This document shows positions 1,955-34,616 of a stretch of DNA of 38,746 nucleotides, in pieces. The translations under genes and the position numbers were made by a program. Where the stretch lies: the IMG/VR virus record IMGVR_UViG_2740892229_000013; one strand, 5' to 3'. Under the pieces are notes generated by a model. The model ran no database searches, was not told the origin of the DNA, and saw nothing but the letters and a program-made list of their open reading frames with translations. Numbering within the stretch: the first letter of the stretch is position 1; each line of letters opens with the position of its first letter. This DNA comes from a virus. Lineage: Duplodnaviria > Heunggongvirae > Uroviricota > Caudoviricetes.

Positions 1955-1970
1955 GTAAGTACATACTTAC
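1955..1970. promoter_or_regulatory. palindrome GTAAGTACATACTTAC (AGTAAGTA-family site)
   Basis: Perfect inverted repeat GTAAGT/ACTTAC between terminator and gene 2014. Confidence 0.45.
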
Positions 1971-2013
1971 GATCATAGAATAGAAAAATAACCAAGACAC
2001 TACGGAGAGTGAA

Positions 2014-2409
2014 ATGACCGTTAAACGCGAAAAACTGACAGTTGATGTTTACTATGCCTCTGAAACCGCCGAAGGTAAGAATGTGGCAAAAATCACCGTT
2101 GTTACGTACAACACCGAAACTGGTGCCGAAGTCCAGGCCAGTACGATCGTGCGTAAAGGTGATGCCTCCGGCGGCGAGTACGCGACTCAATACCAGTCCA
2201 TTCTCGATGCAACTGACCCGCTGCTGCTGAAAATCGAGAACTACTTCCGCCAGGTTGATGAAGAGGTGTTTGAAACCATGATGAATATGGTTAACACCGT
2301 ATTCGCCTCCAGCCTGAACACCAGCACCACCTGGATTGGCCAGTACGGTCTGCGCATTACCTCTGGCATTCCTGCCGACACCTTAATCCCTGAAAGCGTA
2401 TTCGCTTAA
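2014..2409 (+). CDS. hypothetical early protein (131 aa)
   Basis: ORF with RBS ACGGAGAG 2002-2009; followed by terminator. Confidence 0.55.
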   Translation: MTVKREKLTVDVYYASETAEGKNVAKITVVTYNTETGAEVQASTIVRKGDASGGEYATQYQSILDATDPLLLKIENYFRQVDEEVFETMMNMVNTVFASSLNTSTTWIGQYGLRITSGIPADTLIPESVFA

Positions 2410-2418
2410 TCCTCTTTA

Positions 2419-2447
2419 AATGGCGCGCAAACCGCGCCATTTTATTA
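2419..2447 (+). terminator. rho-independent terminator
   Basis: AATGGCGCG (2419-2427) / CGCGCCATT (2433-2441) 9-bp stem then T-rich tail. Confidence 0.7.
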
Positions 2448-2455
2448 TGCCCGAT

Positions 2456-2466
2456 AACAATTTGTT
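2456..2466. promoter_or_regulatory. palindrome AACAATTTGTT (candidate operator)
   Basis: 5+1+5 inverted repeat upstream of gene 2527. Confidence 0.4.
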
Positions 2467-2526
2467 TTCTGCCTTATCTGATTTGTGAAAATGATTTCAC
2501 TGAAGCAACTTAATAAGGAAACCATC

Positions 2527-2901
2527 ATGGGACTTGATATCTATATCGAGACACAGCCTAAAAACGATCTGAATAACGAGGCATCCAGAAAGCAGGTTGC
2601 TTACTTCCGTAAGTTCAATGCGCTCGTTGGGTGGATGGAGCGCAACGTAGGTGAAGTCGAAAATTGTGAGCTTTTAGAATTAACGATGAATGACATTTGT
2701 CTTCTGAAAGCTCATTTGATGCACATAAACGAAAGCAATTGCGAAGAGTACTTGCCTACTCGGGAAGGTTTTTTCTTCGGCAGTCAGGAGTACGACGAAG
2801 GTTACTGGCATGACGTGGATAAGCTGAAAAAACTTGTGGAAGACCTGATCAGGAACCACGACTTTCACAATAACAGACTGACCTTCTGCGCCTGGTGGTA
2901 A
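2527..2901 (+). CDS. hypothetical early protein (about 124 aa)
   Basis: ORF track 2485..2901; AAGGA 2515-2519 favours ATG 2527. Confidence 0.5.
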   Translation: MGLDIYIETQPKNDLNNEASRKQVAYFRKFNALVGWMERNVGEVENCELLELTMNDICLLKAHLMHINESNCEEYLPTREGFFFGSQEYDEGYWHDVDKLKKLVEDLIRNHDFHNNRLTFCAWW

Positions 2902-2903
2902 AT

Positions 2904-3047
2904 ATGGGCGATTTCAAGAAACGCCTGAAGGAAAGAGCCGAGATGGTCAGAAAGCAAAACGCCTCTTCTGTCATCAGATACGCAAGGCAGTTTAGTCGCA
3001 ACAACAAATCAGTTGAGGAAAAGATCCTTAGCGTAATCGGTCGATAA
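2904..3047 (+). CDS. possible small basic protein (47 aa), not in ORF track
   Basis: ATG 2904 to TAA 3045-3047, K/R-rich; weak RBS; followed by hairpin 3051-3078. Confidence 0.25.
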   Translation: MGDFKKRLKERAEMVRKQNASSVIRYARQFSRNNKSVEEKILSVIGR

Positions 3048-3177
3048 TTATTAAGGCCATCAGCATTGGTGGCCTTAAATGACCATCCTGTTTCCCGCAG
3101 GCTAAAAACACCAACCTCTTACCTCCAGGCAACCGACAAACCCACCTGTTCCCGTCCGGCTACCGCAACTTTCCACT

Positions 3178-3204
3178 TTGACGCCTTATTCGTACAACGA
3201 TAAT
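3178..3204 (+). promoter_or_regulatory. candidate sigma70-like promoter (TTGACG, 15 nt spacer, GATAAT)
   Basis: -35-like 3178-3183 and -10-like 3199-3204 upstream of gene 3252; spacer shorter than optimal. Confidence 0.35.
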
Positions 3205-3219
3205 TAACACAAACAAGAA

Positions 3220-3230
3220 AACAATTTGTT
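3220..3230. promoter_or_regulatory. palindrome AACAATTTGTT (candidate operator)
   Basis: Same 11-mer as 2456-2466, upstream of gene 3252. Confidence 0.4.
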
Positions 3231-3251
3231 ATTTACGATAAGGAATTAATC

Positions 3252-3734
3252 ATGAATTTTATCGCTACTGTAAACGCACCCGCACATGGCAATATCGCTG
3301 TAACGTTCTCTGACATTGAAAAACGAGTACTTGGTGCATGGCGCGACAATGAGACGGTAGAACTGTCAGCACAAGAAAAATGCATTATTGCACGCGACAT
3401 CATTGGCAATCGTCGTTACTCGCGGGTATTTGAGAAAGCGTATGTGGTAAATTCTGGATTCGGAACGTTCGTCTTTCCGGTGCGCTCCGGGCGATTCTGC
3501 CAGTCCAAGCTGATTGAGTTCGCTACGCAGATTTCTGTCTGGATTAAAACTCAATCGTCGTTCAAATTTTCCGACGATGAAGCAGTATCGCAGGGGATGC
3601 GGATCGCCAACAATGCAATTAAATGCAAAAACATTACGTATACCGCTGGCGTTGATACATGGAAACTGTTTTGCGCTAACTTTATGCTGAATGTATACGC
3701 AAGCAACCGCATCCACATCCTTGATGGCGTGTAA
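3252..3734 (+). CDS. hypothetical early protein (160 aa)
   Basis: ORF with AAGGA RBS 3240-3244; terminator follows. Confidence 0.55.
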   Translation: MNFIATVNAPAHGNIAVTFSDIEKRVLGAWRDNETVELSAQEKCIIARDIIGNRRYSRVFEKAYVVNSGFGTFVFPVRSGRFCQSKLIEFATQISVWIKTQSSFKFSDDEAVSQGMRIANNAIKCKNITYTAGVDTWKLFCANFMLNVYASNRIHILDGV

Positions 3735-3736
3735 CT

Positions 3737-3768
3737 GAGAAGAGGGCCAGAAACGGCCCTTTCTCTAT
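3737..3768 (+). terminator. rho-independent terminator (imperfect stem)
   Basis: AGAGGGCC / GGCCCT stem with T-rich tail immediately after stop of gene 3252..3734. Confidence 0.55.
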
Positions 3769-3782
3769 AGCCACCAGCTGCC

Positions 3783-3946
3783 GCAGGGAAATTTTCAGAA
3801 ACGGCGAGGAACGTATTCGTGAGCCGACGGGGAACGGCCAGGATTTTTTCGGGAAACGGCTGCATTCGCCTTTGTGTAGAAAAAACATCGGGAAGCTGGT
3901 GGAATCCAACCAGCGGTTGTCGGACAGGTGAGCGGGGAAAATCATG
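3783..3946 (+). repeat. Second cluster of TTTTCRGGGAAACGGC-type direct repeats (iteron-like)
   Basis: Copies near 3783, 3795, 3826, 3848, 3887, 3930; same core as array at 599-746. Confidence 0.55.
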
Positions 3947-4272
3947 ATGACTTTCGTCGCCTGAGACATCCAGATTTCTTTCGTAGCGTAATCACATATG
4001 TGATTAAGTGGTGTGATTATGTGAAAAATCACGCGCACATAATACGCGAGCGGATACGGAACAAAACAAAATGCCGATCCGCGCCGACAATTAAACGCGG
4101 ATCACATAGCAAGAATAAAAGCCAATGATTAACCATACACCATAACGCAATATAACGCGATTTAAGCGCGTTAATGCGCTAAGTAATGGGTATGTACTGG
4201 TAAGGATATAGAAGCGCGTCTATGGCGTTATTTTGGCGCTTATTTTTATGTTGTTGGCTTGAGTCAAAGACA

Positions 4273-4297
4273 ATAAAAAAAGCGCCATCATTGGCGC
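4273..4297 (-). terminator. terminator for leftward transcription
   Basis: Palindrome GCGCCATCATTGGCGC (4282-4297); on minus strand hairpin is followed by TTTTTTT. Confidence 0.55.
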
Positions 4298-4327
4298 GTT
4301 ATGGTGGAAGTATTGGAAACGAAAAAA

Positions 4328-4344
4328 GCGCCCATAGTGGGCGC
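4328..4344. terminator. 17-bp palindrome GCGCCCATAGTGGGCGC, hairpin/terminator-like, copy 1
   Basis: Perfect 7-3-7 inverted repeat flanked by A-run and T-rich tract; identical copy at 4824-4840. Confidence 0.5.
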
Positions 4345-4350
4345 TCGATT

Positions 4351-4581
4351 TTATTTATGTAGACTGATTTCAAATCCCATTTCTACAAACGCTTTTAACA
4401 TTAAAAATATATCAGCGTCGTTCACGTCTGCTTTTTTTCGCTCCTGGTCGCTCAATAAGTCAATTTTGCGCGTCGTTTCATCTATAAGCTCGACTGCGCG
4501 CCCAGCGTAACCAGCGATCCCAGCGATGCGATTAACATAATATTCGTTATGGACGTTAACGCCAGCGATAAGAACAAACAT
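4351..4581 (-). CDS. hypothetical small protein (76 aa) in AT-rich island
   Basis: ORF with AAGGAGC RBS 6 nt upstream of ATG on minus strand. Confidence 0.45.
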   Translation of the reverse strand: MFVLIAGVNVHNEYYVNRIAGIAGYAGRAVELIDETTRKIDLLSDQERKKADVNDADIFLMLKAFVEMGFEISLHK

Positions 4582-4601
4582 GATTAAGCTCCTTAAAAAA
4601 A

Positions 4602-4805
4602 TTAAATAGAATTTTGAAGTTTTCCGATTAATGCGCTTAAACGTAAGTATTCACGTTTGCGCTTGCAATCTCGCTTGCTGTTAAGCAAATCAGAAAACGT
4701 AAAATTTAATTGGTCGCGTTGCGCGATTAAATCATCGATTAATTCCAGTTTATAAGCGCGATACTTTGCGCGATATTCCGCGCGGATCTTGTCATAGCTG
4801 ACCAT
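4602..4805 (-). CDS. hypothetical small protein (about 67 aa)
   Basis: ORF track 4602..4850; AAAGGAGC RBS favours internal ATG at 4805; upstream part of tracked ORF is the palindrome. Confidence 0.4.
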   Translation of the reverse strand: MVSYDKIRAEYRAKYRAYKLELIDDLIAQRDQLNFTFSDLLNSKRDCKRKREYLRLSALIGKLQNSI

Positions 4806-4823
4806 TTTCAAAGCTCCTTTAAA

Positions 4824-4840
4824 GCGCCCATAGTGGGCGC
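4824..4840. promoter_or_regulatory. 17-bp palindrome GCGCCCATAGTGGGCGC, copy 2
   Basis: Identical to 4328-4344; lies between co-directional minus-strand genes. Confidence 0.5.
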
Positions 4841-4853
4841 TTGATTCCATTAA

Positions 4854-5504
4854 TTACGCTTTGAAAGCATCAGCTAAATAATTGTAGAAATCATTTTTAA
4901 TGAAGCGATATTGCTGAGTACCAGCTTTCGCACTCCCAGCTCCTTTGACTTTTTCAACAAGTCCAAGACGTTCGCAAAGATTGATCAACTGGTTGGCTTG
5001 AGTATAGCCAGCGTCCAATTTAATTTCACACGCTTTTTTAGCTTCATTCATTAAATCGAAAACAGCGCCATTGGTGAACGTGTCGATCTCGTCGTTAATC
5101 ATATCGATTAAAGCGAATACACGAGATCCTGACATATCAGCGATGGAATAAACGCATTTACCAGATTTAATTGATTTAACCAGATAAACCAGTTTTTCCA
5201 GAGAATAACTATTAGTCATTGCATCACGGAAAAATACTTCTGGCGCTTGTTTGCTTGCTTTAATCGCATAGTAGAAAACAGAGCATAATTTTTCGTCTTC
5301 TACTGCGTTTACGACGTTGTTGATGAAGTAAGCAAGTTTAGTGGTCGCAGCTTGCATATTTGCTTTGTCTGCTTTAGTGTGCGTACCATTTTTATAATGT
5401 TCGTTATATGTTTGAGTTGCCAGATCTGCTTTATCGCGCAGCTCGTCGGATACAATAGATGCAGCTTCAATGATGGACTTTTTAGAAATGATAATGTTAG
5501 CCAT
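4854..5504 (-). CDS. hypothetical protein (216 aa), AT-rich island
   Basis: ORF with AAGGAAA RBS; no recognisable catalytic motif by eye. Confidence 0.5.
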   Translation of the reverse strand: MANIIISKKSIIEAASIVSDELRDKADLATQTYNEHYKNGTHTKADKANMQAATTKLAYFINNVVNAVEDEKLCSVFYYAIKASKQAPEVFFRDAMTNSYSLEKLVYLVKSIKSGKCVYSIADMSGSRVFALIDMINDEIDTFTNGAVFDLMNEAKKACEIKLDAGYTQANQLINLCERLGLVEKVKGAGSAKAGTQQYRFIKNDFYNYLADAFKA

Positions 5505-5744
5505 GATAATTTTTCCTTATGTAAATTTAAAATTTATTGTCGTTAGCGTCTTCGCTTTCGACGAGTTCAATTATCGATACGCGAAAAAAGATTGCAAGTG
5601 TTTTTTTTAAATTTTTTGCAGGGATGAAAGTCCTAGAAATAAAAGCGAGATCGTCGAAGGTGTTCCCTAAATAAATAATCGATTCCGGCTTTCGACCTTA
5701 TATATATTTAGGTTATTTGATTTGTAGATATAAAGAAGTGATGT

Positions 5745-5775
5745 GAAAAATAATAACCGGACTTAGCCGGTTATT
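5745..5775 (-). terminator. terminator of minus-strand helicase operon
   Basis: AATAACCGG (5752-5760) / CCGGTTATT (5767-5775) stem; T-run follows on minus strand. Confidence 0.6.
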
Positions 5776-5787
5776 AACCTTATAGAT

Positions 5788-6096
5788 TTATTGAACAGAC
5801 TCTACAGCCTTACGATTGGTGTCAAATAGCGCATCAACGAACTGTGCCGATGACTCGCTAGATTCGCAATCCAACATTGCCCGTTCTTCATTTGCCACTT
5901 TCTTACACAGTTCCACATTCTCACCTATCGCTTTTCCTGCTTTTACGGCTGCCGAAAATTGATACATGCAAACTGATACATTCTGAGACGTTGAGCACAC
6001 GTCATTCATCAGCGACTGAATGACAGGCTTATAGTCCATTGCATTTGCCGCAACTGAGCAAAGTAAAAATAATGGTGGTAACAATATCGATTTCAT
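5788..6096 (-). CDS. small secreted/periplasmic protein (102 aa) with N-terminal signal peptide
   Basis: N-terminus MKSILLPPLFLLCSVAANA looks like a Sec signal peptide; 4 Cys in mature part; start 3 nt after upstream stop. Confidence 0.55.
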   Translation of the reverse strand: MKSILLPPLFLLCSVAANAMDYKPVIQSLMNDVCSTSQNVSVCMYQFSAAVKAGKAIGENVELCKKVANEERAMLDCESSESSAQFVDALFDTNRKAVESVQ

Positions 6097-6099
6097 AAC

Positions 6100-6624
6100 T
6101 CAAAAAGGCAAAATTCGTTCAACCCAATCGAACAAAACAACTATTTTTCTACCGTTCTCGACACGTAGTGTAACCTGACAAGCATCTGCGCCTGCTGACA
6201 CCCCCTCAATTTCACGGCCATCCGCCATGTACACCCTTATAGATTTGTTTGCTTTGTAGGCTTGGTTGCAAATTGCAAAAAAATCGCGGCGTGATGGCCG
6301 ATTATCGACATAATCAGGGTGAACTGTTAGTCGACCTTTGAAATCGTGAGCGATACTGTCAACCACACCTGATTCAATTGTACTAATGCGTTCAAGTGGG
6401 AGCCTTATACGATTTTCTTTGTCAAAAGGGGCTGGGCAAAGGTCAACTTTGTTACGAGATGGCATGAGGCCATAAACGTACATGCAAAACGCCTGGCCAT
6501 CTTCGAGAGTGACCCTTACAGGAATTTGTTCTCTGCGCCAGAACATCAGTAGTTTTTCAACGTTAGTGTAATCTCGCGGCCAGAGTTCAGCTTGGATACC
6601 GTAGGTAATATCTTTGGTTGTCAT
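6100..6624 (-). CDS. hypothetical protein (about 174 aa)
   Basis: ORF track 6100..6702; ATG 6624 begins 4 nt after lipoprotein stop (coupled), so upstream extension rejected. Confidence 0.5.
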   Translation of the reverse strand: MTTKDITYGIQAELWPRDYTNVEKLLMFWRREQIPVRVTLEDGQAFCMYVYGLMPSRNKVDLCPAPFDKENRIRLPLERISTIESGVVDSIAHDFKGRLTVHPDYVDNRPSRRDFFAICNQAYKANKSIRVYMADGREIEGVSAGADACQVTLRVENGRKIVVLFDWVERILPF

Positions 6625-6628
6625 GTCA

Positions 6629-7093
6629 TCACAGAGTTGTTGGCAGAATGTCGATGTCACCAGAATTGCTGGTGAACACCCTGAACGCTTTTGTGTCTCC
6701 ATTCTTCAGAGTCGTTTCTCGCTCTTGACGAGCGGGGTTTAGAGCACATAAACCTGCACCTTCAAGAGATGCACCCACAATTAATTCTCCGGCATTTAAA
6801 TGGAAAGTCGCTTTTTCGCCTGTAGCCAGTTTTGCGACAGTTTCGCCATTGATGAAAATGGAAGCATCACATCCAGCTCCTACAAAACCTGTGTCTCTCA
6901 TTACCACCAACGTAGCTGGCGCTGCGCTTTGATACTTGAACACTTTGGCCTGCGGTGCTGGTTTGGCGTCATGGATTGATATTGGACGTGATTGGCACGC
7001 GGTAAGCATCAACACTGGTAACGTTAGTAGAGGGAGAAGCGAGTATTTCATGTTAGTTTTAGAACAGAAAGTGAACAGTATGGGAGACTTCAT
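6629..7093 (-). CDS. putative lipoprotein (lipobox LTAC)
   Basis: Hydrophobic N-terminus LLPLLTLPVLMLTAC-Q with lipobox; AGGGAGA RBS before ATG 7093; alternative start 7051. Confidence 0.6.
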   Translation of the reverse strand: MKSPILFTFCSKTNMKYSLLPLLTLPVLMLTACQSRPISIHDAKPAPQAKVFKYQSAAPATLVVMRDTGFVGAGCDASIFINGETVAKLATGEKATFHLNAGELIVGASLEGAGLCALNPARQERETTLKNGDTKAFRVFTSNSGDIDILPTTL

Positions 7094-7119
7094 CTTTGTC
7101 TCCCTAATTGATAGCGTGA

Positions 7120-7398
7120 TTATTTTAATCTGCTTAATAGCGTTTCGAGATCTTCCTTTGTCATATTAGAGTTCTCATAGATACGCATGATTTTCTCACG
7201 AGTCTTAGCGGAAGCCCCGACAGAAGATATAACCTTGTCAAAGTCGGCCATTGTCAATTGTTCCAGAATGGTATTAATGACTTCAGCCTTAGACATTTTG
7301 ATATTTTTTTCTTTTAGTTTCACTTGAAACTTTCCAAGTTTGTCATTGGCCTTATCAGACAATGCTACCTGACAGTAAGTTGTTTTCTTTTCACTCAT
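7120..7398 (-). CDS. hypothetical small protein (92 aa), possible DNA-binding
   Basis: ORF begins 2 nt after helicase stop. Confidence 0.45.
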   Translation of the reverse strand: MSEKKTTYCQVALSDKANDKLGKFQVKLKEKNIKMSKAEVINTILEQLTMADFDKVISSVGASAKTREKIMRIYENSNMTKEDLETLLSRLK

Positions 7399-7400
7399 AA

Positions 7401-8960
7401 CTAATCTCGTTTCAGAACTCCAAAATCGAATGCTCCATCAATAGGCAATACACCTTCTGCAAAGCCAGGTGTGGTGTCGATGATGTGTTTTCGCTCATAA
7501 GAGTGAGACAACAGGTATTTGTTGCTAATGTCAATGAAATCAGTGATAAAACACACGTTTGCCTGATTTTTTTTGGCTCGTAAGCCACGACCGACACGCT
7601 GTCTCATTTCAACTTCTGCTTTCCCACCACCAGCAAGAATGACCGCACCAACGCTTGGCACATCAACACCAACATCCAGAATAGTCGAGCCTATTAAAAC
7701 ATCTATTTCACCAGACGCTAAACTGTTCAGCTTTGCTTGCCTTGTCGTCTGGTTAGATTCCCCATAGATGAAATCAACTCTAAGACCTGACTCCTTCATC
7801 ATCTCCATCAGGATTTGCCCGTGGCGTTTAAGACGAACCAGAGTCATGCAGTTGAGTGAATGTTGCTTATAAAGCAATGCCTCGCGCACTATGGCCTCGT
7901 TACGTCCCAAATTATACACGATCCCCAACTGATAAGCCTTTTGGTAGGCGGTGCTCATACCAACTCTAAAATTGAGATGTTTGTTGGCAAGTTCGGCCTT
8001 GATTCTGGCCTCGTCTGGCTTGTAGGCAACTTTATGATAAAGGAAGTACGGCTTTGCCAGAATGCCTCGATCAATCAGGTACTTTTCTGTGACTTTAATT
8101 TCAATTCGCCCGGCCACCGCCATCAGGCGCATGTTGGCTTCCGTCGAATCCTTCATGAACGGCGTGGCTGTAAGCGCCAGACGATAGTCTGCGTTCACAC
8201 ATAATCTGGCGATGTCATAGAAATTTGAGCCTGAAGACTCATGCGCCTCTTCCAGAATAAGAAGAGAGACACTTGAAAGGAAGCGTTTCACCAACTCCCG
8301 ACGTTTGAGGTGGTAGCTTTTCTTATCTGGTGTTGCATCGCGTGGTGGTTCTTCGAGGAAACTTGCAAGAGTTTGAACTGTAGCGACGTTGATATGTCGT
8401 GATACCTGGAACTCACCCGAGCCAATGACTCCAACCTTTTGGTCTTTTAACCACGGTTCGCCATTTTTGGCGCGGTAGTCGATGGATCTCTGGAAGTTTT
8501 CGGCCATTTGAAACATCAGAACAGAGCGGGTTGTTAAAAATAATGTCATTCGACCGATACGTGCAGCTGCTTTGCAGGCAACATTAGATTTCCCGCCACC
8601 AGTAGCGATCTGCGCAATCATCATTCCCTCTCGAACCAGTGTTTCCACAGTCTGATCCTGATACGCATAATCAGGATTGTATGGGAATGGGTTAACCGCC
8701 GGATTTGGTTTTCCAAGCGCCGGGGCTTTGTCTTTGCGGATATGAACACATTTGATGCCCGCCTTGTTCAAGTTCGCCGCTACAGGCTTGGCAAAGCCTG
8801 CAGGGAACGAGTTTTTACTCCAGTTGAACATTGTGCTTGTGCCCTTCCAGTCGCCAGTCTCGACTTCGTAGCTCAACATCTGTTGCACCAGTTGCTTTAC
8901 CTTGTCATCTGCGCCAGAAATAAGCGCATTAACTGCGTTAGATACAATCCGAACAGTCAT
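7401..8960 (-). CDS. SF2 DNA/RNA helicase (DEAH-type)
   Basis: Walker A ATGGGKSN, DEAH-like LILEEAH, motif III LTATP, motif VI QRVGRGLR; strong RBS AAGGAAAGAGG. Confidence 0.85.
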   Translation of the reverse strand: MTVRIVSNAVNALISGADDKVKQLVQQMLSYEVETGDWKGTSTMFNWSKNSFPAGFAKPVAANLNKAGIKCVHIRKDKAPALGKPNPAVNPFPYNPDYAYQDQTVETLVREGMMIAQIATGGGKSNVACKAAARIGRMTLFLTTRSVLMFQMAENFQRSIDYRAKNGEPWLKDQKVGVIGSGEFQVSRHINVATVQTLASFLEEPPRDATPDKKSYHLKRRELVKRFLSSVSLLILEEAHESSGSNFYDIARLCVNADYRLALTATPFMKDSTEANMRLMAVAGRIEIKVTEKYLIDRGILAKPYFLYHKVAYKPDEARIKAELANKHLNFRVGMSTAYQKAYQLGIVYNLGRNEAIVREALLYKQHSLNCMTLVRLKRHGQILMEMMKESGLRVDFIYGESNQTTRQAKLNSLASGEIDVLIGSTILDVGVDVPSVGAVILAGGGKAEVEMRQRVGRGLRAKKNQANVCFITDFIDISNKYLLSHSYERKHIIDTTPGFAEGVLPIDGAFDFGVLKRD

Positions 8961-9042
8961 AAACCTCTTTCCTTAGTGCCTTTTGTATGTTATTTGGCTA
9001 TTATAATAAGTAAGTGATTACTTAGTGGATTGTAGCAATAAA
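8961..9042. promoter_or_regulatory. divergent promoter/operator region
   Basis: Between divergent helicase and ParB operons; contains TATAAT (9002-9007) and palindrome AAGTAAGTGATTACTT (9008-9023). Confidence 0.45.
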
Positions 9043-9726
9043 ATGGATGTAAAAATCACGATTTTGCAGGTTGATGTTGCCAACCTTCGCCCGAATACCT
9101 GGAACACCAATTCGGTTGGTGCGCAGAATTTTGAAAAACTGAAAGGTTCTATCGAAAAATTGGGCTTTTTTAAGCCAATTTTGGCTCGTGAACTTGAAGA
9201 TGGATTTTTTGAAATCCTCGGCGGCGAACATCGCTGGCGTGCCGCTATTGAGCAAGGAATTTCAACGGTTCCAGTGCTTTCTGTGGGCAAAATTAGCGAT
9301 GTCGTAGCTAAACAGATGTCACTGGTGGACAACGAGCGATACGGTGAAGACGACCAAATCGCATTGCAACGCTTCATTGAAGAAATTCAGTCAGAACTTG
9401 ACTATCAACTGTCTGAAATCGCCCCGTATGACGACGAAATCTCGATGGTTTTAGCAAAAGAGGCGGCAATCGACCTTGAAGCACTGGAGGCGTTGTCTCG
9501 TGGTAGTGATGAGCCTGTCGATACCGACAAACGAGAGAAAACCGAACGTGTGGGGGCGGAACATCAGACCATGCGCTTCAAAGTAACTTTCGATGCGTCA
9601 GATCGTGTTGCAGAAACCATAAAAAACATCATCAAAGAGCAGGCTATTAACACCGGTAATGAAATGGAGAACGCTGGTGAGGCTCTGGTGTGGCTGGTCG
9701 ACTACTACTACAAGGAGCGTATGTAA
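9043..9726 (+). CDS. ParB/Srx-like nuclease-domain protein 1 (possible RHH C-terminus)
   Basis: N-terminal ParB-type motif FEILGGEHRWRAAIEQG; ORF track starts GTG 9025, ATG 9043 preferred. Confidence 0.75.
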   Translation: MDVKITILQVDVANLRPNTWNTNSVGAQNFEKLKGSIEKLGFFKPILARELEDGFFEILGGEHRWRAAIEQGISTVPVLSVGKISDVVAKQMSLVDNERYGEDDQIALQRFIEEIQSELDYQLSEIAPYDDEISMVLAKEAAIDLEALEALSRGSDEPVDTDKREKTERVGAEHQTMRFKVTFDASDRVAETIKNIIKEQAINTGNEMENAGEALVWLVDYYYKERM

Positions 9727-10394
9727 TGACCAAAAAGTTTGAAATCGTATATCGCGACCCGGCAGATCTTATTCCCTATGAGATGAATGCCAAAAAGCAT
9801 GATGAACAGCAGATCCGAGATCTAGCCGCAGCCATTAAAAAGCGCGGATTTGACCAGCCAATTACGGTCGATAAGAACGACGTAATTATTACTGGCCACG
9901 GCCGCCGTGAGGCTGCAATTTTTGCTGGACTTGAGCGCGTACCGGTTATTGTTCGCGATGATCTCAGTGATGACGAGGTTCGTGCGAAGCGCCTTGAAGA
10001 TAACCGACTTGCCAGCATTGATTACGATGCAATTAAGCTACAGAAAGAGCTTGAGTCGCTTGTTCTGGACGATATCGAGGTTTTCGGCTTTGAAGAGCGT
10101 GAGTTGAATGTTCTCGTTGGCAGCATGACAGAAGAAATGGACACCGACTCGCTAGTTATCGATCTTGGCGAAGAAACTAAACGACAGAAGGATGAACACA
10201 CCGAGATCAGTCGTGAAGTTGCAGCGGAAGAAGTACGTGTTGTCGACGTATTGGGCTTTAAAACGCTTCCTGCTGGCTCTGCCATTGTTGTTGGTGATTT
10301 GCTTGCCCACATGGAAGAAATGACGGGAGAAAGCGGGGTAGACGCATTTGTGGCATATGCGGAGAAGATCTCTTCCGGGGAGATGGCTGTATGA
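9726..10394 (+). CDS. ParB/Srx-like nuclease-domain protein 2
   Basis: Motif ITGHGRREAAIFAG; ATG overlaps upstream stop (TAATG); ORF track start 9690 rejected. Confidence 0.75.
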   Translation: MTKKFEIVYRDPADLIPYEMNAKKHDEQQIRDLAAAIKKRGFDQPITVDKNDVIITGHGRREAAIFAGLERVPVIVRDDLSDDEVRAKRLEDNRLASIDYDAIKLQKELESLVLDDIEVFGFEERELNVLVGSMTEEMDTDSLVIDLGEETKRQKDEHTEISREVAAEEVRVVDVLGFKTLPAGSAIVVGDLLAHMEEMTGESGVDAFVAYAEKISSGEMAV

Positions 10395-11056
10395 GCAAAT
10401 ACATCATCAACGTATCGTTTCAGACACGCGTAAATAAAACCACGCGCACGTTGGAAATCGCTGAGTCGTTCGGGCTTGGCCTGGACGAAAAAGAGTGGAC
10501 GCTTTACGACAATCTGGAGCTGGAAGTGAAGCAGGGCGATGTGGTGTACATCACCGGCCAATCCGGTTCCGGCAAATCCGTTGTGCTGCGCGAGTTGCAA
10601 CGACAGATGAAGGATGAAGGGCTGTCTGTAGCCTCCATCGATGATTTTACCTTCGATAATGAGGTTAACGTCATCGATCAGTTGGGCAAAACGACCAGCG
10701 ATGCGCTTGGGTTGTTATCTATGGCTGGTCTGAACGATGCATATCTGTTTGTTCGCAAGCCTTCTGAAATGTCAGACGGTCAGAAATATCGTCTCAAGAT
10801 TGCCAAACTGATTGAGTCAGGCGCTAAAGTGTGGGCTGCTGACGAGTTCGGTGCTGTTCTAGACCGTGTAACCGCTCAGGTTGTGGCATCTAACCTCCAG
10901 CGTGCCGCTCGAAAGGTTGGTGCGACGGTAATGGTGGCGACGACTCACGAAGACCTGAAGAACGCGCTGCGCCCGGATATGCAGATCACCAAGCACTACA
11001 AAGAACGCGTGAAGGTGGAATATCACAATGGTAGTCATGATGAGGTTCATTTATGA
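10391..11056 (+). CDS. soluble ABC-type ATPase
   Basis: Walker A GQSGSGKS, ABC signature MSDGQ, Walker B VWAADE, H-loop ATTHED; no TM segments; ATGA overlap with upstream gene. Confidence 0.8.
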   Translation: MSKYIINVSFQTRVNKTTRTLEIAESFGLGLDEKEWTLYDNLELEVKQGDVVYITGQSGSGKSVVLRELQRQMKDEGLSVASIDDFTFDNEVNVIDQLGKTTSDALGLLSMAGLNDAYLFVRKPSEMSDGQKYRLKIAKLIESGAKVWAADEFGAVLDRVTAQVVASNLQRAARKVGATVMVATTHEDLKNALRPDMQITKHYKERVKVEYHNGSHDEVHL

Positions 11057-11943
11057 CGGACATCATCATTAAACGCTACCGCCCTGAAGAGTTTCCGCGT
11101 CATCTGGACTTTCTGGAGCGAATGACTGTCACAAAGGGAACTGTAGAGGACTGGCACGCTCTTAAGTCGCTTCACTACAAAACAGACGGCAAACCTTTCG
11201 CGCCAACTTACTATCGCTGCGAACTTGATGACCGTCTGGTGGGCGTCGTGGTTATGGCTTACCCGAAACTACTGCTGGCACCTCGCCACCGCATGTTTCC
11301 TAAGTTGAAACCAACCACTAATACCACCGTGGCTAACCAGTACTGGGGTCGGTACGTGAATAACAACTTTGCGGTGATCAGTCGCTCAGTTGTGGATACT
11401 CAGTATCGTGGCGTAGGCGTCTCTTATCGAATGATTAACCTGGTTAGCAGGATGCATGACCGGCCAATCATTGAGATCCAGTCCTCGATGAGCAAATACA
11501 ATCCCTTCGCCATGAAAGCAGGGTTTAAGTTCATCCGCCCTGAGCGACCGAAGAGCTATGAAAGTGCACTGCGTGTATTCCAGCGCCATTTCCGTTCCGA
11601 CCCGGGTGATAACGAGGCGATCGTCAAAGAATTGTTCGCAATGAGCGAGTCTCGTCGTCGCCGTGCACTGCGTGATCTGGTGGCGGACTACCACAAGAAC
11701 AGTTCCCTGGCAAAAGCTGGGCGGAATCGTGGCACGACGATTCAGGACATTGCCGACAGTCTGGTGGACGAGGCCAGCATTGTGAAGCTGCTCAAGGACA
11801 TTCACAACCTGAGCTTTACGTCTCCGTTGTATGGTGTGTACCGAAACCCTGACTTTGGCCGTCGACTGCCTGACACGCTGCCACTGCTGGCATTCGACAA
11901 ACAACCTTTGGATAAACCGTTAGAAATTGCTTTACCGGCATAA
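11053..11943 (+). CDS. GNAT-fold acyltransferase-like protein with C-terminal extension
   Basis: QYRGVGVSYRM (acyl-CoA binding-type motif) and NPFAMKAGFKF; ATGA overlap with ABC ATPase gene. Confidence 0.5.
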   Translation: MTDIIIKRYRPEEFPRHLDFLERMTVTKGTVEDWHALKSLHYKTDGKPFAPTYYRCELDDRLVGVVVMAYPKLLLAPRHRMFPKLKPTTNTTVANQYWGRYVNNNFAVISRSVVDTQYRGVGVSYRMINLVSRMHDRPIIEIQSSMSKYNPFAMKAGFKFIRPERPKSYESALRVFQRHFRSDPGDNEAIVKELFAMSESRRRRALRDLVADYHKNSSLAKAGRNRGTTIQDIADSLVDEASIVKLLKDIHNLSFTSPLYGVYRNPDFGRRLPDTLPLLAFDKQPLDKPLEIALPA

Positions 11944-11952
11944 GGATTTGCC

Positions 11953-12219
11953 ATGACGTTAACCGATAAACAAAAGGACATCATCAAAACGCTCAATCTC
12001 GGTTATGAGCGAGGTCATCTACTTGACCTGGACGAATTGCTTGAAGTTTTGCCGTACAAGACAACCAAGCAAAGTATCCAGTTCTCAATTCGCGCTCTGA
12101 TAAAAAAGGGGCTGGTGGAGAAAGGGCATACGCGCCAACGCAGTGACAATCGCTATCACCGCCGAACTCTTGGGTTAACCACTTTAGGTCGAGCCAAAGC
12201 GAAGTTACTGGTGATGTAA
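11953..12219 (+). CDS. small winged-helix-like DNA-binding protein
   Basis: 88 aa, basic C-terminus; AAGGA RBS. Confidence 0.45.
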   Translation: MTLTDKQKDIIKTLNLGYERGHLLDLDELLEVLPYKTTKQSIQFSIRALIKKGLVEKGHTRQRSDNRYHRRTLGLTTLGRAKAKLLVM

Positions 12220-12221
12220 TC

Positions 12222-12397
12222 GGTCTGGGAGCTTATTTAAAGACCTGCATCTGTATATATAAATAATAAGTAACTTATTAAATATATACGGAAGCAGGCT
12301 TCGTAAGACATGCCAGACCTAATTAAACACCCCAGAAAACAAGTTGGTTAGCAGATGCAGTAAACAAGTTGTTTTAGAGCGCATGGACGCGCTCTGT
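12222..12397. promoter_or_regulatory. structured intergenic region upstream of terS (nested inverted repeats, AT-rich palindrome)
   Basis: GGTCTGG 12222-12228 / CCAGACC 12313-12319; CTGCATCTG 12245-12253 / CAGATGCAG 12352-12360; AT palindrome 12253-12289; AAACAAGTTGTTT 12362-12374; AGAGCGC/GCGCTCT 12376-12397. Confidence 0.45.
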
Positions 12398-12414
12398 GTG
12401 TTTTAGAGGGATCT

Positions 12415-13047
12415 ATGACGGTCGAAAAAGACGAGGTAAAAACTCGCCTGACACCAGCGGAGTGGGCCGAAGCTGAAGCCAAATGGACGTCAGGCGAATA
12501 TACACTCTCAAAGCTGGAGGAAGAGTACGGCATTCGTCGTGAAACACTCTCCAGACATTTCAAAAAGCGAGGATTAGAGAAAGGCGCGGACTCTGTTGGG
12601 AAGATGGTTCGTGAGTCTCTTAAATCTGACGCAGAGCTTCGCGCTAAAGTCCGTGCGGAAAAGATAGAAGAACGTCGTACACGTTATGACGGCTGGGCGT
12701 ATGCGTTGGGGCAGATGGTGATGGTCGAAGTCACTACGGCCAAACGTGAGGGTAAGCCTTTAGGGGCGATTGAGGATTCTCTCAAGAGCTTACAGAGAGC
12801 CAGTAATACCCTTGCAAAATGCTTTGAAGTTTCGTCCAAAGCATTGGGCATGGATCATGCGGAAAATGACGAGGAAGAAATTCCGAATCTGGTATTTGGT
12901 GAGCTTACGCCTTCCCAGGTGGCGAAATTACGTCAGGAAGACGACGAGCCTGAAATCATCGATGACGAATTGCTTGAGACGTTGGAAGAAGAAGCTCTAA
13001 GCGAATTTGATGCGACAGATGATGGAAGTGAAGGGGAGGACGAATAA
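12415..13047 (+). CDS. terS: terminase small subunit
   Basis: HTH-like N-terminus, acidic C-terminus, directly upstream of and overlapping terL (TAATG). Confidence 0.6.
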   Translation: MTVEKDEVKTRLTPAEWAEAEAKWTSGEYTLSKLEEEYGIRRETLSRHFKKRGLEKGADSVGKMVRESLKSDAELRAKVRAEKIEERRTRYDGWAYALGQMVMVEVTTAKREGKPLGAIEDSLKSLQRASNTLAKCFEVSSKALGMDHAENDEEEIPNLVFGELTPSQVAKLRQEDDEPEIIDDELLETLEEEALSEFDATDDGSEGEDE

Positions 13048-14303: not shown

Positions 14304-14329
14304 GTAAGTAATTATCTAAGGTTATTCAA

Positions 14330-15904: not shown

Positions 15905-15925
15905 TAAGTAACAAAGGGAATTTTT

Positions 15926-17714: not shown

Positions 17715-17724
17715 TCAGTGTGGT

Positions 17725-20909: not shown

Positions 20910-21293
20910 GTGTTTATTGAAGCGTTTGCAAGTTTGATGCAGAAGGCAAAGATTGGCACGGTCGGGACTGACATTTTCTGTCACTACTTGCCTGCCAATG
21001 TGAAATCTGGCGTCCTGCTTATTAACCCAAATACCGGTATCAGCATCGATCATGAGCTACAGGGCTTTTATCTCGAATCATTCACAATCATTGTGCGTGG
21101 TTCGTCAATTACTACGACGGTTGAGAAAGCCAATAAAATCATTGAGATGTTTCCAGTAGAGGAAACGGAATCTGGTGGTGTTTATTTTCGACTTGTACGA
21201 CCGATGGCGATGCCAATCATTTATCCCAAAAATGATGGGGCATTAATAGAAGCAGGCATTCCTGTTGAATTTGCTGGCTATTTATTGAATTAA
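20910..21293 (+). CDS. hypothetical tail completion/terminator-like protein (GTG start)
   Basis: ORF track 20787..21293 overlaps upstream gene by 122 nt; GAGAGG RBS supports GTG 20910, 2 nt after upstream stop. Confidence 0.4.
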   Translation: MFIEAFASLMQKAKIGTVGTDIFCHYLPANVKSGVLLINPNTGISIDHELQGFYLESFTIIVRGSSITTTVEKANKIIEMFPVEETESGGVYFRLVRPMAMPIIYPKNDGALIEAGIPVEFAGYLLN

Positions 21294-21299
21294 CTCAAT

Positions 21300-21319
21300 T
21301 AGTAAGTATATACTTACTA
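21300..21319. promoter_or_regulatory. 20-bp perfect palindrome TAGTAAGTATATACTTACTA
   Basis: Upstream of major tail gene. Confidence 0.5.
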
Positions 21320-21367
21320 TTAGCGCAATGAATGCGTAGAATTAACGGAAAAAGGAGTTTTCCATCA

Positions 21368-27776: not shown

Positions 27777-27858
27777 GTATCTGGATAAGTAAGTACTAAT
27801 TTACTATCATTGTGGCGCTGACAGGATGTTAGCGCTTACTTATTTTAAGGATGAAACA

Positions 27859-32900: not shown

Positions 32901-34568
32901 GCTCGTGTTGAAGGCGATGCTGCAAACGCTAAACAACTGGAAGTGTTGCAGTCAACGGTAGAGGAAAGCTCCGCTGCCGTTGAAGAAATGAAAAAGACGG
33001 TTGCAGAGGTCGATCGTGCCAGTGCAGAACTGACTACGAACATTGAGGCGTTAGCCAAAACAAATATTGACCTGGCTCTTCGTCAAGATGAAGACCAGCA
33101 CAAGCAGATGGTCAATAACGCGAAGATCGCAACAACACAGAAAACCTTTGCTGATGATATGTCTGCAATGGCCACGAAGGTTGAGGAAATTCGCGTAGAA
33201 ATTGGCGAAGACATTAAGGCCAGTATTCTGGAAGAGTCCACCGCTCGTGCCGATGGCGATGAAGCGTTGGCAAAGCGTGTCACTCAGCTGCAATCTAAGT
33301 TTGAAGGAGATATCAGCTCGGCGATTAGTACAGAGCAGGAGGCTCGTACATCTGCCGATGAAGCTCTGACGACACAGATCACTCAGCTTGAGTCGAAAGT
33401 AAGCAACGATATCGTCGCAGCTATTAAGGAAGAGCAAGAAGCCCGAGCAACGGAAGATTCGGCTCTGGCAAGCCAGATCACCCAACTTCAGGCAAAGGTT
33501 GACGGTGATATATCCGCTGCCATCACTCAGGAGCAGGAGGCCAGAGCAAGTGCTGACCAGGCGCTCTCACGAGAAATTAACAGCCTGCGAGCACAAACCG
33601 GAACTGATATTGCCGCAGCGGTTGCTGTAGAGACAAAGGCAAGGACTGATGCCGATAGTGCATTGTCCACTCAGATTACGTCTCTTACAGCAAAAGCTAA
33701 TGATCTCGAGGCATCTCTTGCCAGAGAAACAACGGCTCGTGCTGATGGTGATACCGCTTTAACAAAAGAGGTTTCAAGTTTAAAAGCACAGACAGCGAAA
33801 GATATTAGTGCGGCCGTTGCAGTTGAAACGCAGGCTCGAACTGATGCTGACTCGGCGTTGTCGTCTCAGATCACCAAGCTGACCTCTCAATACAAAGAGG
33901 ATATTAAAGCGGCTGTAGCAACCGAAACGAAAACGCGTACAGAGCAAGATGCTGCATTGGCGACTCAAATCACAAACTTAGAGTCTCAAACGGCAGCCAA
34001 CATTTCCGCGGCGGTAACAACTGAAACGACAGCGAGAACGCAGGCAGATAATGCTCTGAGTGGGCGAATCGATACTCTGAAAGCAGAGGTGGATGGAAAT
34101 ACCGCGACAATTCAACAGCAGGCAACAGCTATTGCTGATACCAACAAAAAAGTGTCAACCGCGTGGACGTTGAAAATGGAAACTTCAACGAGCGGAGGGC
34201 AGAAGTATGTTGCTGGTATTGCGCTTGGTATCGACACCACTGGCCTTTCTCAGTTTTTGGTGCAGGCTGACAGGTTTGGTTTGGTCAACTCTGTTAACGG
34301 GAAGATCACCACGCCATTTGTTATCGAAAACAGTATCGCCTATATGAATGGTGCGTATATCAAGGATGGCACAATCACCAATGCAAAAGTAGGCGATCTG
34401 CAATCTACCAATTTTGTTAGCGGTAGATCTGGATGGCGGTTCGGCAAAAATGGAACGCTTGAGATCAACGGTAATAGCGGGGGTAATGGGCGACTGGTCA
34501 TAAATGGTCAGCGGATTGACGTTTATGACGATAACAACGTCCTACGAGTAAGAATTGGCCTTCTGTAA
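29943..34568 (+). CDS. tail tip/host-specificity protein J-like with inserted coiled-coil repeat region
   Basis: Conserved J-like blocks PNSALVGLKVNSEQFGS, AFGCTSRGQAHRVGLWLL, KYVAGIALGIDTTGLSQFLVQADRFGLVN; AAGGA RBS; ORF track start 29937 is TTG. Confidence 0.9.
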   Translation: MEQFKKKKLPLLIAGAGGKKSKSSSRTPVEADDTVNSRAMAAILDLLGEGVIGGLVNGAKSIFIDDLPILNEDGSSNFSGITWDFRDGSQDQTPMAGFDFVETPKSVNIQLKKTHDVTVSIDNDEADRVRVIMKFPSLRSVDKSSGDTNGTTVKYKFQIANADATFSDVVAEGEKSVDITLTAKKTGVYYRSYELKLPKPGRAYKVRVIRLTDDNSSQYLYNDTWVDSIGEIVDTPMNYPNSALVGLKVNSEQFGSTMPSRSYLVRGIKIRVPSNYNEYTNTYVGVWDGTFKLLSSSNPAWILYDLLTNTRYGLGQFVSESMIDLGQLYQIGRYCDEEVDDGFGGKEKRFAINTQITSRQDAYRLIQDIAGAFRGMVFWAGGMVNIMQDSPSDPVMMFTNSNVKDGLFTYKGSARKDRPSVALVTYNNKEDGYKQNIEYVEDQDAMRRYGELKTEVVAFGCTSRGQAHRVGLWLLYTARMESDVITFTAGLDASFLMPGETVLIQNKYRAGKRNSGRIVEFAKNSITLDAPVSLAKSGSFIRILNQEGKIVERDVLETGENITKVTFSKALSSAETPVLNGVWTITEPDLEPMRVRIVNIAQGETPGSFDITAVENNPSKYEAIDNGATLIPQNTTVLDPTYSKPSNLQITEGTYLSSPGNLSVKLTATWEGKSPEYWISWRRSDENNVSNWQSARVTEEQYEIVNVAENGRYDFQLYAVSFNGKKTEIISTVYQVLGTMTPPDAPTSLTAVGDYRNVILNWVNPDSVDLDHINVYASQTNNLDTAKLIAESASTTFTHAGLGDSETWYYWVRASNKRGMLSPPNSNLGTEATTRDVLSFLAGKITSSELGQALLEDINSKASQEAVDELNEHINQSVESLEGAVNDVKEDIAELDKQFSDNLADFEIKFNERSDALENAQTELKGEVSATIDKVNEAFEKIDATDAAIVEIENTVSEHDKALANTVEAIKAARDEAAALIAKESEARVEGDAANAKQLEVLQSTVEESSAAVEEMKKTVAEVDRASAELTTNIEALAKTNIDLALRQDEDQHKQMVNNAKIATTQKTFADDMSAMATKVEEIRVEIGEDIKASILEESTARADGDEALAKRVTQLQSKFEGDISSAISTEQEARTSADEALTTQITQLESKVSNDIVAAIKEEQEARATEDSALASQITQLQAKVDGDISAAITQEQEARASADQALSREINSLRAQTGTDIAAAVAVETKARTDADSALSTQITSLTAKANDLEASLARETTARADGDTALTKEVSSLKAQTAKDISAAVAVETQARTDADSALSSQITKLTSQYKEDIKAAVATETKTRTEQDAALATQITNLESQTAANISAAVTTETTARTQADNALSGRIDTLKAEVDGNTATIQQQATAIADTNKKVSTAWTLKMETSTSGGQKYVAGIALGIDTTGLSQFLVQADRFGLVNSVNGKITTPFVIENSIAYMNGAYIKDGTITNAKVGDLQSTNFVSGRSGWRFGKNGTLEINGNSGGNGRLVINGQRIDVYDDNNVLRVRIGLL
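33240..34100 (+). repeat. about 9 tandem 33-aa (99-bp) coiled-coil repeats within J-like gene
   Basis: Repeated pattern DISAA..EQEAR..AD.AL..QIT.L..K. Confidence 0.7.
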
Positions 34569-34598
34569 TGTAGAAAAAAATATTTATATCGGTAAAAA

Positions 34599-34616
34599 TA
34601 AGTAGGTACATACTTA
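34599..34616. promoter_or_regulatory. palindrome TAAGTAGGTACATACTTA
   Basis: TAAGTA/TACTTA inverted repeat upstream of fibre gene, followed by hairpin GGTGGGC/GCCCACC 34619-34639. Confidence 0.45.

Follow-up and report, generated by a model that had tools for sequence, protein, structure and literature searches.

The viral record IMGVR_UViG_2740892229_000013 (Caudoviricetes), here called the window, is a stretch of 38,746 nucleotides (nt) which, as judged from its sequence, is an SSU5-like phage-plasmid. The Escherichia coli phages Cyrano and CMS-2020a are about 99% identical to it. The element under study is a short palindrome that recurs along the window, mostly between genes. Following the Cyrano annotation, the window is organized as listed here.

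1-4350: accessory region
up to 8960, minus strand: block of genes, the last of which encodes a UvsW-like helicase
9046-12219, plus strand: one operon with two ParB-like genes, two ABC-type ATPase genes and a gene for an 88-amino-acid (88-aa) protein
after 12219: terminase, head and tail genes, through the tail fibre

The palindromes were scored with a symmetric 22-base-pair (bp) matrix, refined on Cyrano and SSU5, in which a score of at least 12 defines a site. By this measure the window has ten sites, eight strong and two weak. The strong sites and the weak variant near terS are the following.

1952-1973: palindromic site ATTGTAAGTACATACTTACGAT, core 1956-1969, score 20.7; conserved in Cyrano, SSU5 and the Klebsiella phage pJN2-26
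9003-9024: palindromic site ATAATAAGTAAGTGATTACTTA, score 19.8; in the 85-bp divergent region between the helicase and ParB-like genes
12256-12288: weak variant AATAAGTAACTTATT with a spacing of 1, scores 13.0 and 11.4; between the gene for the 88-aa winged-helix protein and terS
14297-14318: palindromic site TCGATAGGTAAGTAATTATCTA, score 20.0; overlaps the terL stop codon, the portal start codon lying 12 nt further on
15804-15825: palindromic site AAAATAAGTCAGTACTTACTTA, score 23.2; within the 3′ end of the portal gene
17724-17745: palindromic site TAGATAAGCAATTATCTATGTT, score 18.8; between the major capsid stop codon and the intrinsic terminator 17749-17774
21299-21320: perfect 20-bp palindrome TAGTAAGTATATACTTACTA, score 23.9; upstream of a tail protein gene (start 21369)
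27782-27803: site TGGATAAGTAAGTACTAATTTA, score 20.8; between the minor tail genes M and L
34595-34616: site AAAATAAGTAGGTACATACTTA, score 21.3; in the gap between the tail J-like and tail fibre genes, with orthologues in Cyrano and SSU5

The repeat unit is a pair of inverted hexamers, TA(A/G)GTA and TAC(T/C)TA, separated by 2 bp (a 14-mer) or 6 bp (an 18-mer), and flanks phased every 4 bp lengthen it to about 22 bp. Alignment of the Cyrano matches gives the consensus TARR-TAAG-TA-NN-TA-CTTA-YYTA, in which the flanks extend the pattern in four-base steps, and the outline TARG-Nk-CYTA is enriched at k = 2, 6 and 10 only. The 14-mer TAAGTANNTACTTA, with at most one mismatch, has 8 matches in the window and 14 in Cyrano, against 0.07 expected in each. 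TAAGTA-N0-8-TACTTA occurs four times in the window and in none of 100 dinucleotide-preserving shuffles, so the recurrence noticed in the first-pass annotation of this DNA is indeed beyond chance. Nine of the ten window sites are intergenic, in a window of which intergenic DNA makes up 7.5% (binomial P = 7e-10). Most of the long AT-rich gaps in the accessory region 1-4350 carry no site; the motif is therefore not general to AT-rich spacers.

All eight sequences quoted in the first-pass annotation are found where it placed them, and its six main sites, together with the two copies that it called partial, are recovered by the matrix. The latter two (14303 and 27786) are not partial at all, since they score as full sites (20.0 and 20.8), and the strong site at 15804-15825 had been overlooked. 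The boundaries proposed at 9008 and 34599 are better replaced by the 14-mers 9011-9024 and 34603-34616, each preceded by an extra TAAG unit. The palindrome at 12265-12279 is present but is the weakest site (13.0), with the deviant spacing AAGT-A-ACTT.

The same matrix finds 31 sites in Cyrano, 29 in SSU5 and 29 in pJN2-26, where 0.3 are expected, the number found per 108 kilobases of Markov-shuffled Cyrano sequence. Thirty of the 31 Cyrano sites are intergenic. Nearly all lie between plus-strand genes, three are at divergent junctions beside minus-strand genes, and none stands in front of the Cyrano maintenance genes repA, parA, kacT and minD. The genes that follow a site are structural ones but also those of replication, recombination and nucleotide metabolism. 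The Cyrano sites that can be projected onto other genomes are largely retained (24 of 26 in SSU5, 20 of 21 in the Klebsiella phage), and identity is 0.86 in the 14-bp core as against 0.69-0.76 in flanks that include coding 3′ ends. The sequence of site 15804 is the same in Cyrano and SSU5, with a single difference in the Klebsiella phage; the orthologues of site 17724 are TAGGTAAGTAATTATCTA in SSU5 and TAGGTAAGTACTTACCTA in the Klebsiella phage, and for site 27782 the Klebsiella phage has a perfect 22-mer, TAGATAAGTAAGTACTTATCTA. In IMG/VR, 31 stretches contain the exact 18-mer TAGGTAAGTACTTACCTA, every one of them from the SSU5-like family.

Conservation extends to more distant relatives. In those from Morganella, Xenorhabdus and Photobacterium, the ParB-like protein is 42-46% identical and the half-site TA(A/G)GTA is kept; the site there has the form TAGGTA-N6-TACCTA, for example ATAGGTATTTAAATACCTAT, and is found at the helicase/ParB junction, at the terL/portal junction and at the portal 3′ end. 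All relatives, these included, have a site at the helicase/ParB junction, and all have one at the terL/portal junction, where Morganella carries ATAGGTATTTAAATACCTAT and other variants are TAGGTAAGTAATTATCTA, TAGGTAAGTGCTTACCTA or TAAGTAAGTACTTACCTA, so that the arms shift while the motif stays. The hexamers are 2 bp apart at most sites of the Cyrano/SSU5/Klebsiella lineage and 6 bp apart in the others. Since the distant relatives keep the inverted TA(A/G)GTA hexamers with a changed spacing, these hexamers are the constant element.

Several sites coincide with promoter-like sequences. Site 1952 lies downstream of the terminator hairpin 1924-1949 and overlaps TTGTAA-17-TAGAAT (1953-1981). Site 9003, flanked by the minus-strand UvsW-like helicase gene, which starts at 8960, and by the first ParB-like gene, which starts at 9046 on the plus strand, has candidate -10 hexamers on both strands (plus, TATTAT, 8999-9004; minus, TATAAT, 9005-9000). 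Site 15804 sits in the spacer of TTGAAA-17-TATGAT (15801-15829), the top sigma-70 match (10/12) of window positions 1-20000. Site 21299 overlaps TTGAAT-18-TATACT, and site 27782 overlaps TGGATA-17-TATCAT (27782-27810), with a weak second matrix match at 27825-27846 (score 13.4). Among plus-strand promoter-like matches, 5 of 18 overlap a site (1953-1981, 21285-21314, 27782-27810 and 27818-27846 besides 15801-15829), whereas none of the 12 on the minus strand does. When the best sigma-70-type scores within 45 nt are compared between the two directions at 86 sites of three genomes, the score along the genes is the higher one at 64 sites and the score against them at 22 (means 9.6 versus 7.8). The promoter at 15801-15829 is inside the portal coding sequence, about 100 nt before the next gene, and is near-identical in four genomes (the Klebsiella -10 is TATCAT), which suggests that the scaffold and capsid genes are served by an internal promoter.

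The -10 hexamer begins most often at +16 to +20 relative to the core, which places the palindrome in the spacer, and otherwise at +1 to +12, with the palindrome over the -10, or at -5, with the palindrome at the start site. No -10 hexamer external to the motif stands at a fixed offset, and +29 is also among the offsets. A constant promoter geometry was considered and rejected: the only constant peaks, at offsets 6 and 10, are caused by TA steps within the motif and are seen on either strand. A gene-end motif tied to the stop codon was likewise rejected, as the previous stop lies -2 to 167 nt away and the next start 3 to 166 nt away, with no register. Some sites are merely 3-17 nt ahead of a start codon, an arrangement that is explained if the promoter is upstream of the palindrome or over it. 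An operator accounts for this variable placement around the -10 better than a promoter class of fixed geometry does. Symmetric sites at varying positions on promoters close to consensus have the look of repressor operators; for activator sites, the register has to be fixed.

As RNA hairpins the sites reach only -2.7 to -7.5 kcal/mol. Because these hairpins are so weak, a structural role is unlikely, and it is the sequence of the arms, not their pairing, that is conserved. The sites are AT-rich, fold weakly and have no T tract, unlike intrinsic terminators, and Rfam has no match in the window. True terminators adjoin two of them, 1924-1949 before site 1952 and 17749-17774 after site 17724. The placement at operon starts claimed in the first-pass annotation accordingly holds for some sites and fails for site 17724, which lies between the capsid stop codon and a terminator and argues against a simple promoter reading for all sites.

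Conservation of the arms, retention at the same junctions across genera, overlap with forward sigma-70-like sequences and hairpins too weak to matter together make the general proposal of the first-pass annotation, symmetric regulator sites or elements of a phage-specific promoter class, the best explanation, the varying -10 register favouring operators over a promoter class of fixed geometry. At about an even chance, the palindromes are candidate operators of a phage-encoded symmetric regulator acting on lytic sigma-70-type promoters, with repression the likeliest effect. Operators of this kind would top the promoters of about 30 plus-strand lytic transcription units, nine of them in the window. 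In the plasmid-prophage state the regulator would sit on the spacer, the -10 or the start site and block RNA polymerase; beside gene ends and terminators it might also block read-through. Without the regulator, or with an inactive one, all lytic units would be freed together. The motif, its statistics, its intergenic placement, its conservation and its overlap with promoter-like sequences are direct observations, whereas binding by a protein, the sign of the regulation and the identity of the regulator are inferred.

Several observations weigh against this reading. The hexamers are 6 bp apart at the own site of the favoured repressor candidate (described below) and in the other lineages, yet 2 bp apart at most sites here, two spacings that one rigid helix-turn-helix dimer could not both recognize. 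The stretch from the gene of this repressor to its first opposite-strand neighbour contains no second site. Direct repression of late structural genes, with no visible temporal cascade, would be unusual. Perfect sites persist in SSU5 although this repressor is missing there, so the sites could be needed in lytic growth. Site 17724 stands just before a terminator, where a promoter makes little sense. Lastly, in per-gene RNA sequencing of an LF82 (Cyrano) lysogen under five conditions (PMC9928086, table S1), the expression steps at junctions with a site do not differ, in any condition, from those at siteless junctions with a gap of at least 40 nt. Some steps at sites are striking, namely upward ones in macrophage samples ahead of the tail protein gene and of genes 56 and 60, and a drop of 6 log2 units after gene 30; an apparent drop at the sites in one condition vanished with a gap-matched control. 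As the steps are not significantly different from those of the controls, the Cyrano table does not discriminate between the models.

Four proteins come into question as the regulator of such operators. The tentatively favoured one is an Xre-type repressor encoded beside the integrase, outside the window (CYRAN_45 in Cyrano) and expressed in the lysogen. Essentially every plasmid-state member of the family has this repressor (865 PLSDB records, versus 798 with the gene for the 88-aa protein, with matching counts per genus), and the recognition helix stays conserved even where two alleles share only 39-66% identity. The repressor is not found in SSU5, although the SSU5 sites are kept. Its own promoter, TTTACA-17-TAATAT, is directly followed by (G/A)GTAAGYACTTACC in Cyrano, in the Klebsiella phage and in Yersinia pMT1. 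In the intergenic region between the repressor and the integrase, only this block of promoter and palindrome is clearly conserved between Cyrano and the Klebsiella phage. Since the side toward the opposite-strand first gene is not conserved, the main lytic operator of the repressor may differ by lineage or lie elsewhere.

Cyrano 42575-42640 and pJN2-26 90469-90530: repressor promoter and palindrome block, the same being kept in pMT1

The other three are encoded in the window.

7120-7398, minus strand: 92-aa protein, conserved throughout the family
11953-12219, plus strand: 88-aa protein, whose gene closes the ParB-ParB-ATPase-ATPase operon and immediately precedes terS
9046-9726, plus strand: ParB/Spo0J-like protein, encoded immediately 3′ of site 9003; its paralogue is at 9726-10394

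The 92-aa protein is a doubtful candidate. Its Cyrano orthologue is expressed about 12-fold over the prophage background in the lysogen (expression table, PMC9928086). It has neither a family nor a PDB match, a profile search of the PDB giving no ribbon-helix-helix, and its AlphaFold2 model is poor (predicted local distance difference test, pLDDT, 60); the ribbon-helix-helix fold proposed for it is our own reading of the sequence. The 88-aa protein, to which we give the same low standing, was described in the first-pass annotation as winged-helix, and modelling agrees: a MarR-like fold is predicted (AlphaFold2 pLDDT 83; Foldseek MepR/MarR, TM-score 0.7-0.78). Its recognition helix is near-invariant even in distant relatives, and its operon is silent in the lysogen. 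Homologue searches with the 88-aa and 92-aa proteins return members of the SSU5-like family only. The ParB-like protein, the least probable of the four, matches Pfam ParB_N (E = 3e-13) and aligns with residues 23-171 of Spo0J (1vz0, E = 3e-9), a region that we take to hold the helix-turn-helix; its paralogue at 9726-10394 matches in the N-terminal domain only. The remainder of the probability falls to something other than these four, and a Pfam scan of 30 conserved hypothetical Cyrano proteins gives no further DNA-binding domain. The two proteins that the first-pass annotation had singled out (11953-12219 and 7120-7398) are thus no better supported than the Xre-type repressor or the ParB-like protein.

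The closest analogues of the proposed operators are the C1 operators of P1 and the stoperators of mycobacteriophages. The stoperators of the cluster A mycobacteriophages, recognized by a repressor of the L5 gp71 type, are like the present sites in having more than 20 genome-wide copies of one short site. They are located at promoters and in short intergenic spaces of both early and late regions (PMC9283540). The 29-31 sites per genome found here, 30 of 31 intergenic in Cyrano, agree with this pattern in number and in position. A further likeness is provided by D29, which has lost its repressor and kept its stoperators and so parallels SSU5. A passage in PMC5712189 describes D29 as a lytic deletion derivative of a temperate mycobacteriophage. 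The stoperators, however, are asymmetric 13-mers bound by a monomer, with an orientation that follows transcription, whereas the present sites are two-fold symmetric, 14-22 bp long and carried by an enterobacterial phage-plasmid. At a stoperator the bound repressor halts elongating RNA polymerase; in the Cyrano table the per-gene steps at sites are like those of the gap-matched controls. In the C1 network of P1, an enterobacterial plasmid prophage is silenced by one repressor at scattered operators on top of sigma-70 promoters (examples in the P1 record are Ossb, Olpa, OpmgT and Oc1), just as is proposed here; the C1 operators are asymmetric 17-mers of unrelated sequence, and the P1 late genes are under Lpa and not directly under C1. 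Cluster O and cluster K mycobacteriophages, which are siphoviruses, carry tens of intergenic copies of a conserved short repeat, dyad-symmetric in cluster O and known as start-associated sequences in cluster K. These repeats belong to phages of another host phylum and have other sequences, and the likeness is that of a short intergenic repeat in many copies.

The foremost alternative, unlikely but substantial, is that the palindromes mark a phage-specific class of lytic promoters, to which an activator or RNA-polymerase factor would recruit the host polymerase, as with P1 Lpa or T4 MotA; every site would in that case be a start under positive control. In the Lpa-dependent late promoters of P1, an AAGT/ACTT palindrome lies between the -35 and -10 positions and is repeated ahead of many genes, as here. 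The P1 element, the 9-bp palindrome AAGTnACTT, is centred at -22 and has the AAGT/ACTT half-site in common with the present sites, the biggest class of which is centred about -22 to -25 from a -10-like hexamer. An exact AAGTAACTT even occurs at 12268, in the gap between a small DNA-binding gene and terS: the 88-aa gene is directly upstream of terS with AAGTAACTT between them, as lpa is directly upstream of pacA with LPpac between them. A promoter class would also suit the retention of all sites in the virulent SSU5, about 30 copies would be normal for a 108-kilobase phage, and the conserved covarying hairpins just 3′ of the late-region sites would come to lie at the 5′ ends of transcripts.

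The comparison with P1 fails in other respects. The late promoter boxes of P1 read AAGTGACTA, AAGTGATTT, AAGTTACTT or ATGTGACTT, followed after a 4-nt gap by TAnnnT at four of the five read (the gap to the -10 is 9 nt in LPhot), and they have no -35 element; here the distance to the -10 is not fixed, and several sites overlap promoters whose -35 and -10 hexamers are good and should need no activator. The half-sites are 1 bp apart in P1 and 4 or 8 bp apart in the strong sites of the window, only the weak 12268-12276 (AAGTAACTT) fitting the P1 spacing. Lpa acts on late operons (morphogenesis and lysis), whereas the present sites also stand ahead of early genes; replication, nucleotide-metabolism and structural regions are marked alike, so that no single temporal class is singled out. 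A tblastn comparison of P1 Lpa with the window, Cyrano, SSU5 and pJN2-26 finds no homologue, no match being better than E = 0.97, though a remote homologue may escape tblastn. The terminator right after one site and the sites 3-17 nt from the next start codon also speak against promoters. Given these failures in spacing, gap, -35 element, late restriction and Lpa homologue, the P1 late promoters are a resemblance and not the parent family.

A second alternative, which we consider decidedly improbable, is that the palindromes are parS- or OB-like sites of the ParB-family protein 9046-9726 and its paralogue 9726-10394, which would act as a KorB/Noc-like clamp, dependent on cytidine triphosphate (CTP), and silence nearby promoters. 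In RK2, KorB (at OB) and KorA (at OA), and likewise Noc, bind palindromes of 12-16 bp that are present in 7-70 copies per replicon; the protein is of the ParB family or a small helix-turn-helix protein, and many operons are repressed. ParB-family proteins typically have many-copy palindromes of 13-16 bp. As in these systems, a ParB-family gene here adjoins a palindromic site (9003-9024, 22 nt upstream of the gene), and the operon is directly preceded by a site in every relative examined. The alignment with Spo0J runs over the N-terminal domain into the presumed helix-turn-helix region, and the real partition genes (ParA and a small protein) are seemingly elsewhere, which leaves the ParB pair without an assigned role.

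A lysogenic silencer, however, should be expressed in the lysogen, and the ParB-like operon is silent there (5-9 normalised reads, the background being about 10), a difference from silencing of the KorB type. The consensus TARGTA-N2/6-TACYTA has no half-site in common with the reference sites (parS, TGTTNCACGTGAAACA; OB, TTTAGCSGCTAAA), the second paralogue has the N-terminal domain only, and the first ParB-like protein is the most divergent of the operon (42-46% identity) although the half-site is nonetheless conserved. In its full form this alternative, with the same slight probability, has the roughly 30 palindromes load the ParB-like CTPase pair, possibly together with the ABC-type ATPases and the winged-helix protein, and so silence or time the lytic genome; if true, a DNA clamp of the partition type would have become the master switch that governs the life cycle of a phage. 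The ABC-type ATPase pair of this operon (10391-11943) is itself highly conserved, with 96-99% protein identity among Cyrano, SSU5 and the Klebsiella phage, more than for the capsid and terminase proteins. In the Morganella, Xenorhabdus and Photobacterium relatives identity is 64-81% for the first ATPase and 49-79% for the second, which has an acetyltransferase-like part according to the Cyrano annotation.

Less probable still is an action with no dedicated regulator, in which the palindromes would be weak RNA or DNA hairpins serving in processing or pausing, recombination boundaries like the PeSL cassettes of T4, or sites of an RcsB-like host factor. A hairpin of 5-9 bp is possible at each site, the sites lie at gene boundaries and some overlap stop codons, but the hairpins are weak, it is sequence and not pairing that is conserved, Rfam is empty, and the sites are retained at orthologous junctions and not at mosaic breakpoints. 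The RcsB box has the consensus TN(G/A)GA-N4-TC(T/C)NA, with a conserved GA/TC core. The outer TAAG...CTTA of the present sites, with its 6-bp gap, shares the outline of this box (TAAGAATATTCTTA), but the core, where the RcsB box is most conserved, is GT/AC here. The Photobacterium relative keeps the motif, and to our knowledge there is no Rcs system outside Enterobacterales. Chance or base composition has next to no probability: motif and intergenic DNA are both AT-rich, but the shuffles, the restricted spacing, the siteless AT-rich gaps and the cross-genus retention already refute it.

The weak site 12256-12288 differs from the others in its surroundings. It forms the apex of a 55-nt hairpin (12244-12298, -25.7 kcal/mol, z = -7.2) and probably belongs to a different, composite element. 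This element (12222-12330), in the gap between the 88-aa gene and terS, consists of GTCTGGGAG, the hairpin 12244-12298, which has a G+C clamp and an AT-rich apex, and then several inverted CCCAGAC/CCAGA repeats. It has about three copies per genome (Cyrano 78060-78200 and near 31176; SSU5 78277-78440; pJN2-26 15246-15400, 38508-38620 and 74823-74900), and the GenBank records of SSU5 and Cyrano both start in the middle of the copy beside terS. As to function, the composite element may serve as a pac site or bind terminase, act as a lytic origin or control the late region.

Three other hairpins lie between late-region palindromes and the ribosome-binding sites of tail genes. The first, of 5 bp, follows site 21299 at 21323-21337 and covaries (stems GCGCA/TGCGT, GCACC/GGTGC and GTGTC/GACAC); the second follows site 27782 at 27812-27839 (-14.7 kcal/mol) and has a conserved loop, ACAGGATGT; the third, also covarying, is 3′ of site 34595 at 34618-34640 (-15.5 kcal/mol). 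None has a clear U tract, and the stems of all three show compensatory changes among the window, SSU5 and the Klebsiella phage. A role in stabilising 5′ ends or in processing is possible.

Two features away from the palindromes deserve mention. The tail-fibre region 35000-38746 has a G+C content of 0.56-0.59, as against 0.37-0.52 elsewhere, a strong AT skew and three runs of exactly 10 N (35624-35633, 36373-36382 and 36816-36825); it may be masked, scaffolded or foreign in origin. A protein closely related to FljA, which represses phase-1 flagellin, is encoded in Cyrano, in SSU5 and in the Klebsiella phage (Pfam Flag1_repress, E = 1e-80), and this suggests that host flagellin expression is open to interference by the phage-plasmid.

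Cyrano 100780-101301, minus strand: FljA homologue, corresponding to about 4700-5200 of the window, where the window differs from Cyrano

The family to which the window belongs includes Salmonella Typhi pHCM2, Yersinia pestis pMT1 and hundreds of Klebsiella, E. coli and Enterobacter plasmids, with about 800 records in PLSDB. SSU5-like phage-plasmids are frequent among clinical isolates and carry resistance genes (PMC9600943). SSU5 itself is termed virulent in a passage of PMC5427195. The whole segment with the integrase, the Xre-type repressor and their neighbours is missing from SSU5 (SSU5 42596-42761 compared with Cyrano 39269-43137), and about 800 plasmid-state relatives have it; the missing segment offers a simple explanation for the virulence of SSU5. 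The searchable literature on SSU5, pHCM2 and phage-plasmids does not describe the motif and has nothing on the control of the switch between plasmid life and lysis in SSU5-like phage-plasmids, so the regulatory circuit behind the palindromes appears to be undescribed so far. One conserved operator at about 30 lytic promoters would define a concrete, testable regulon with predicted transcription units. The motif would supply cis-elements for pulling down the regulator, and it suggests why SSU5, from which this repressor module is missing, is virulent. The pattern of one repressor with many sites would thereby be extended from P1 and the cluster A mycobacteriophages to a third, unrelated group.

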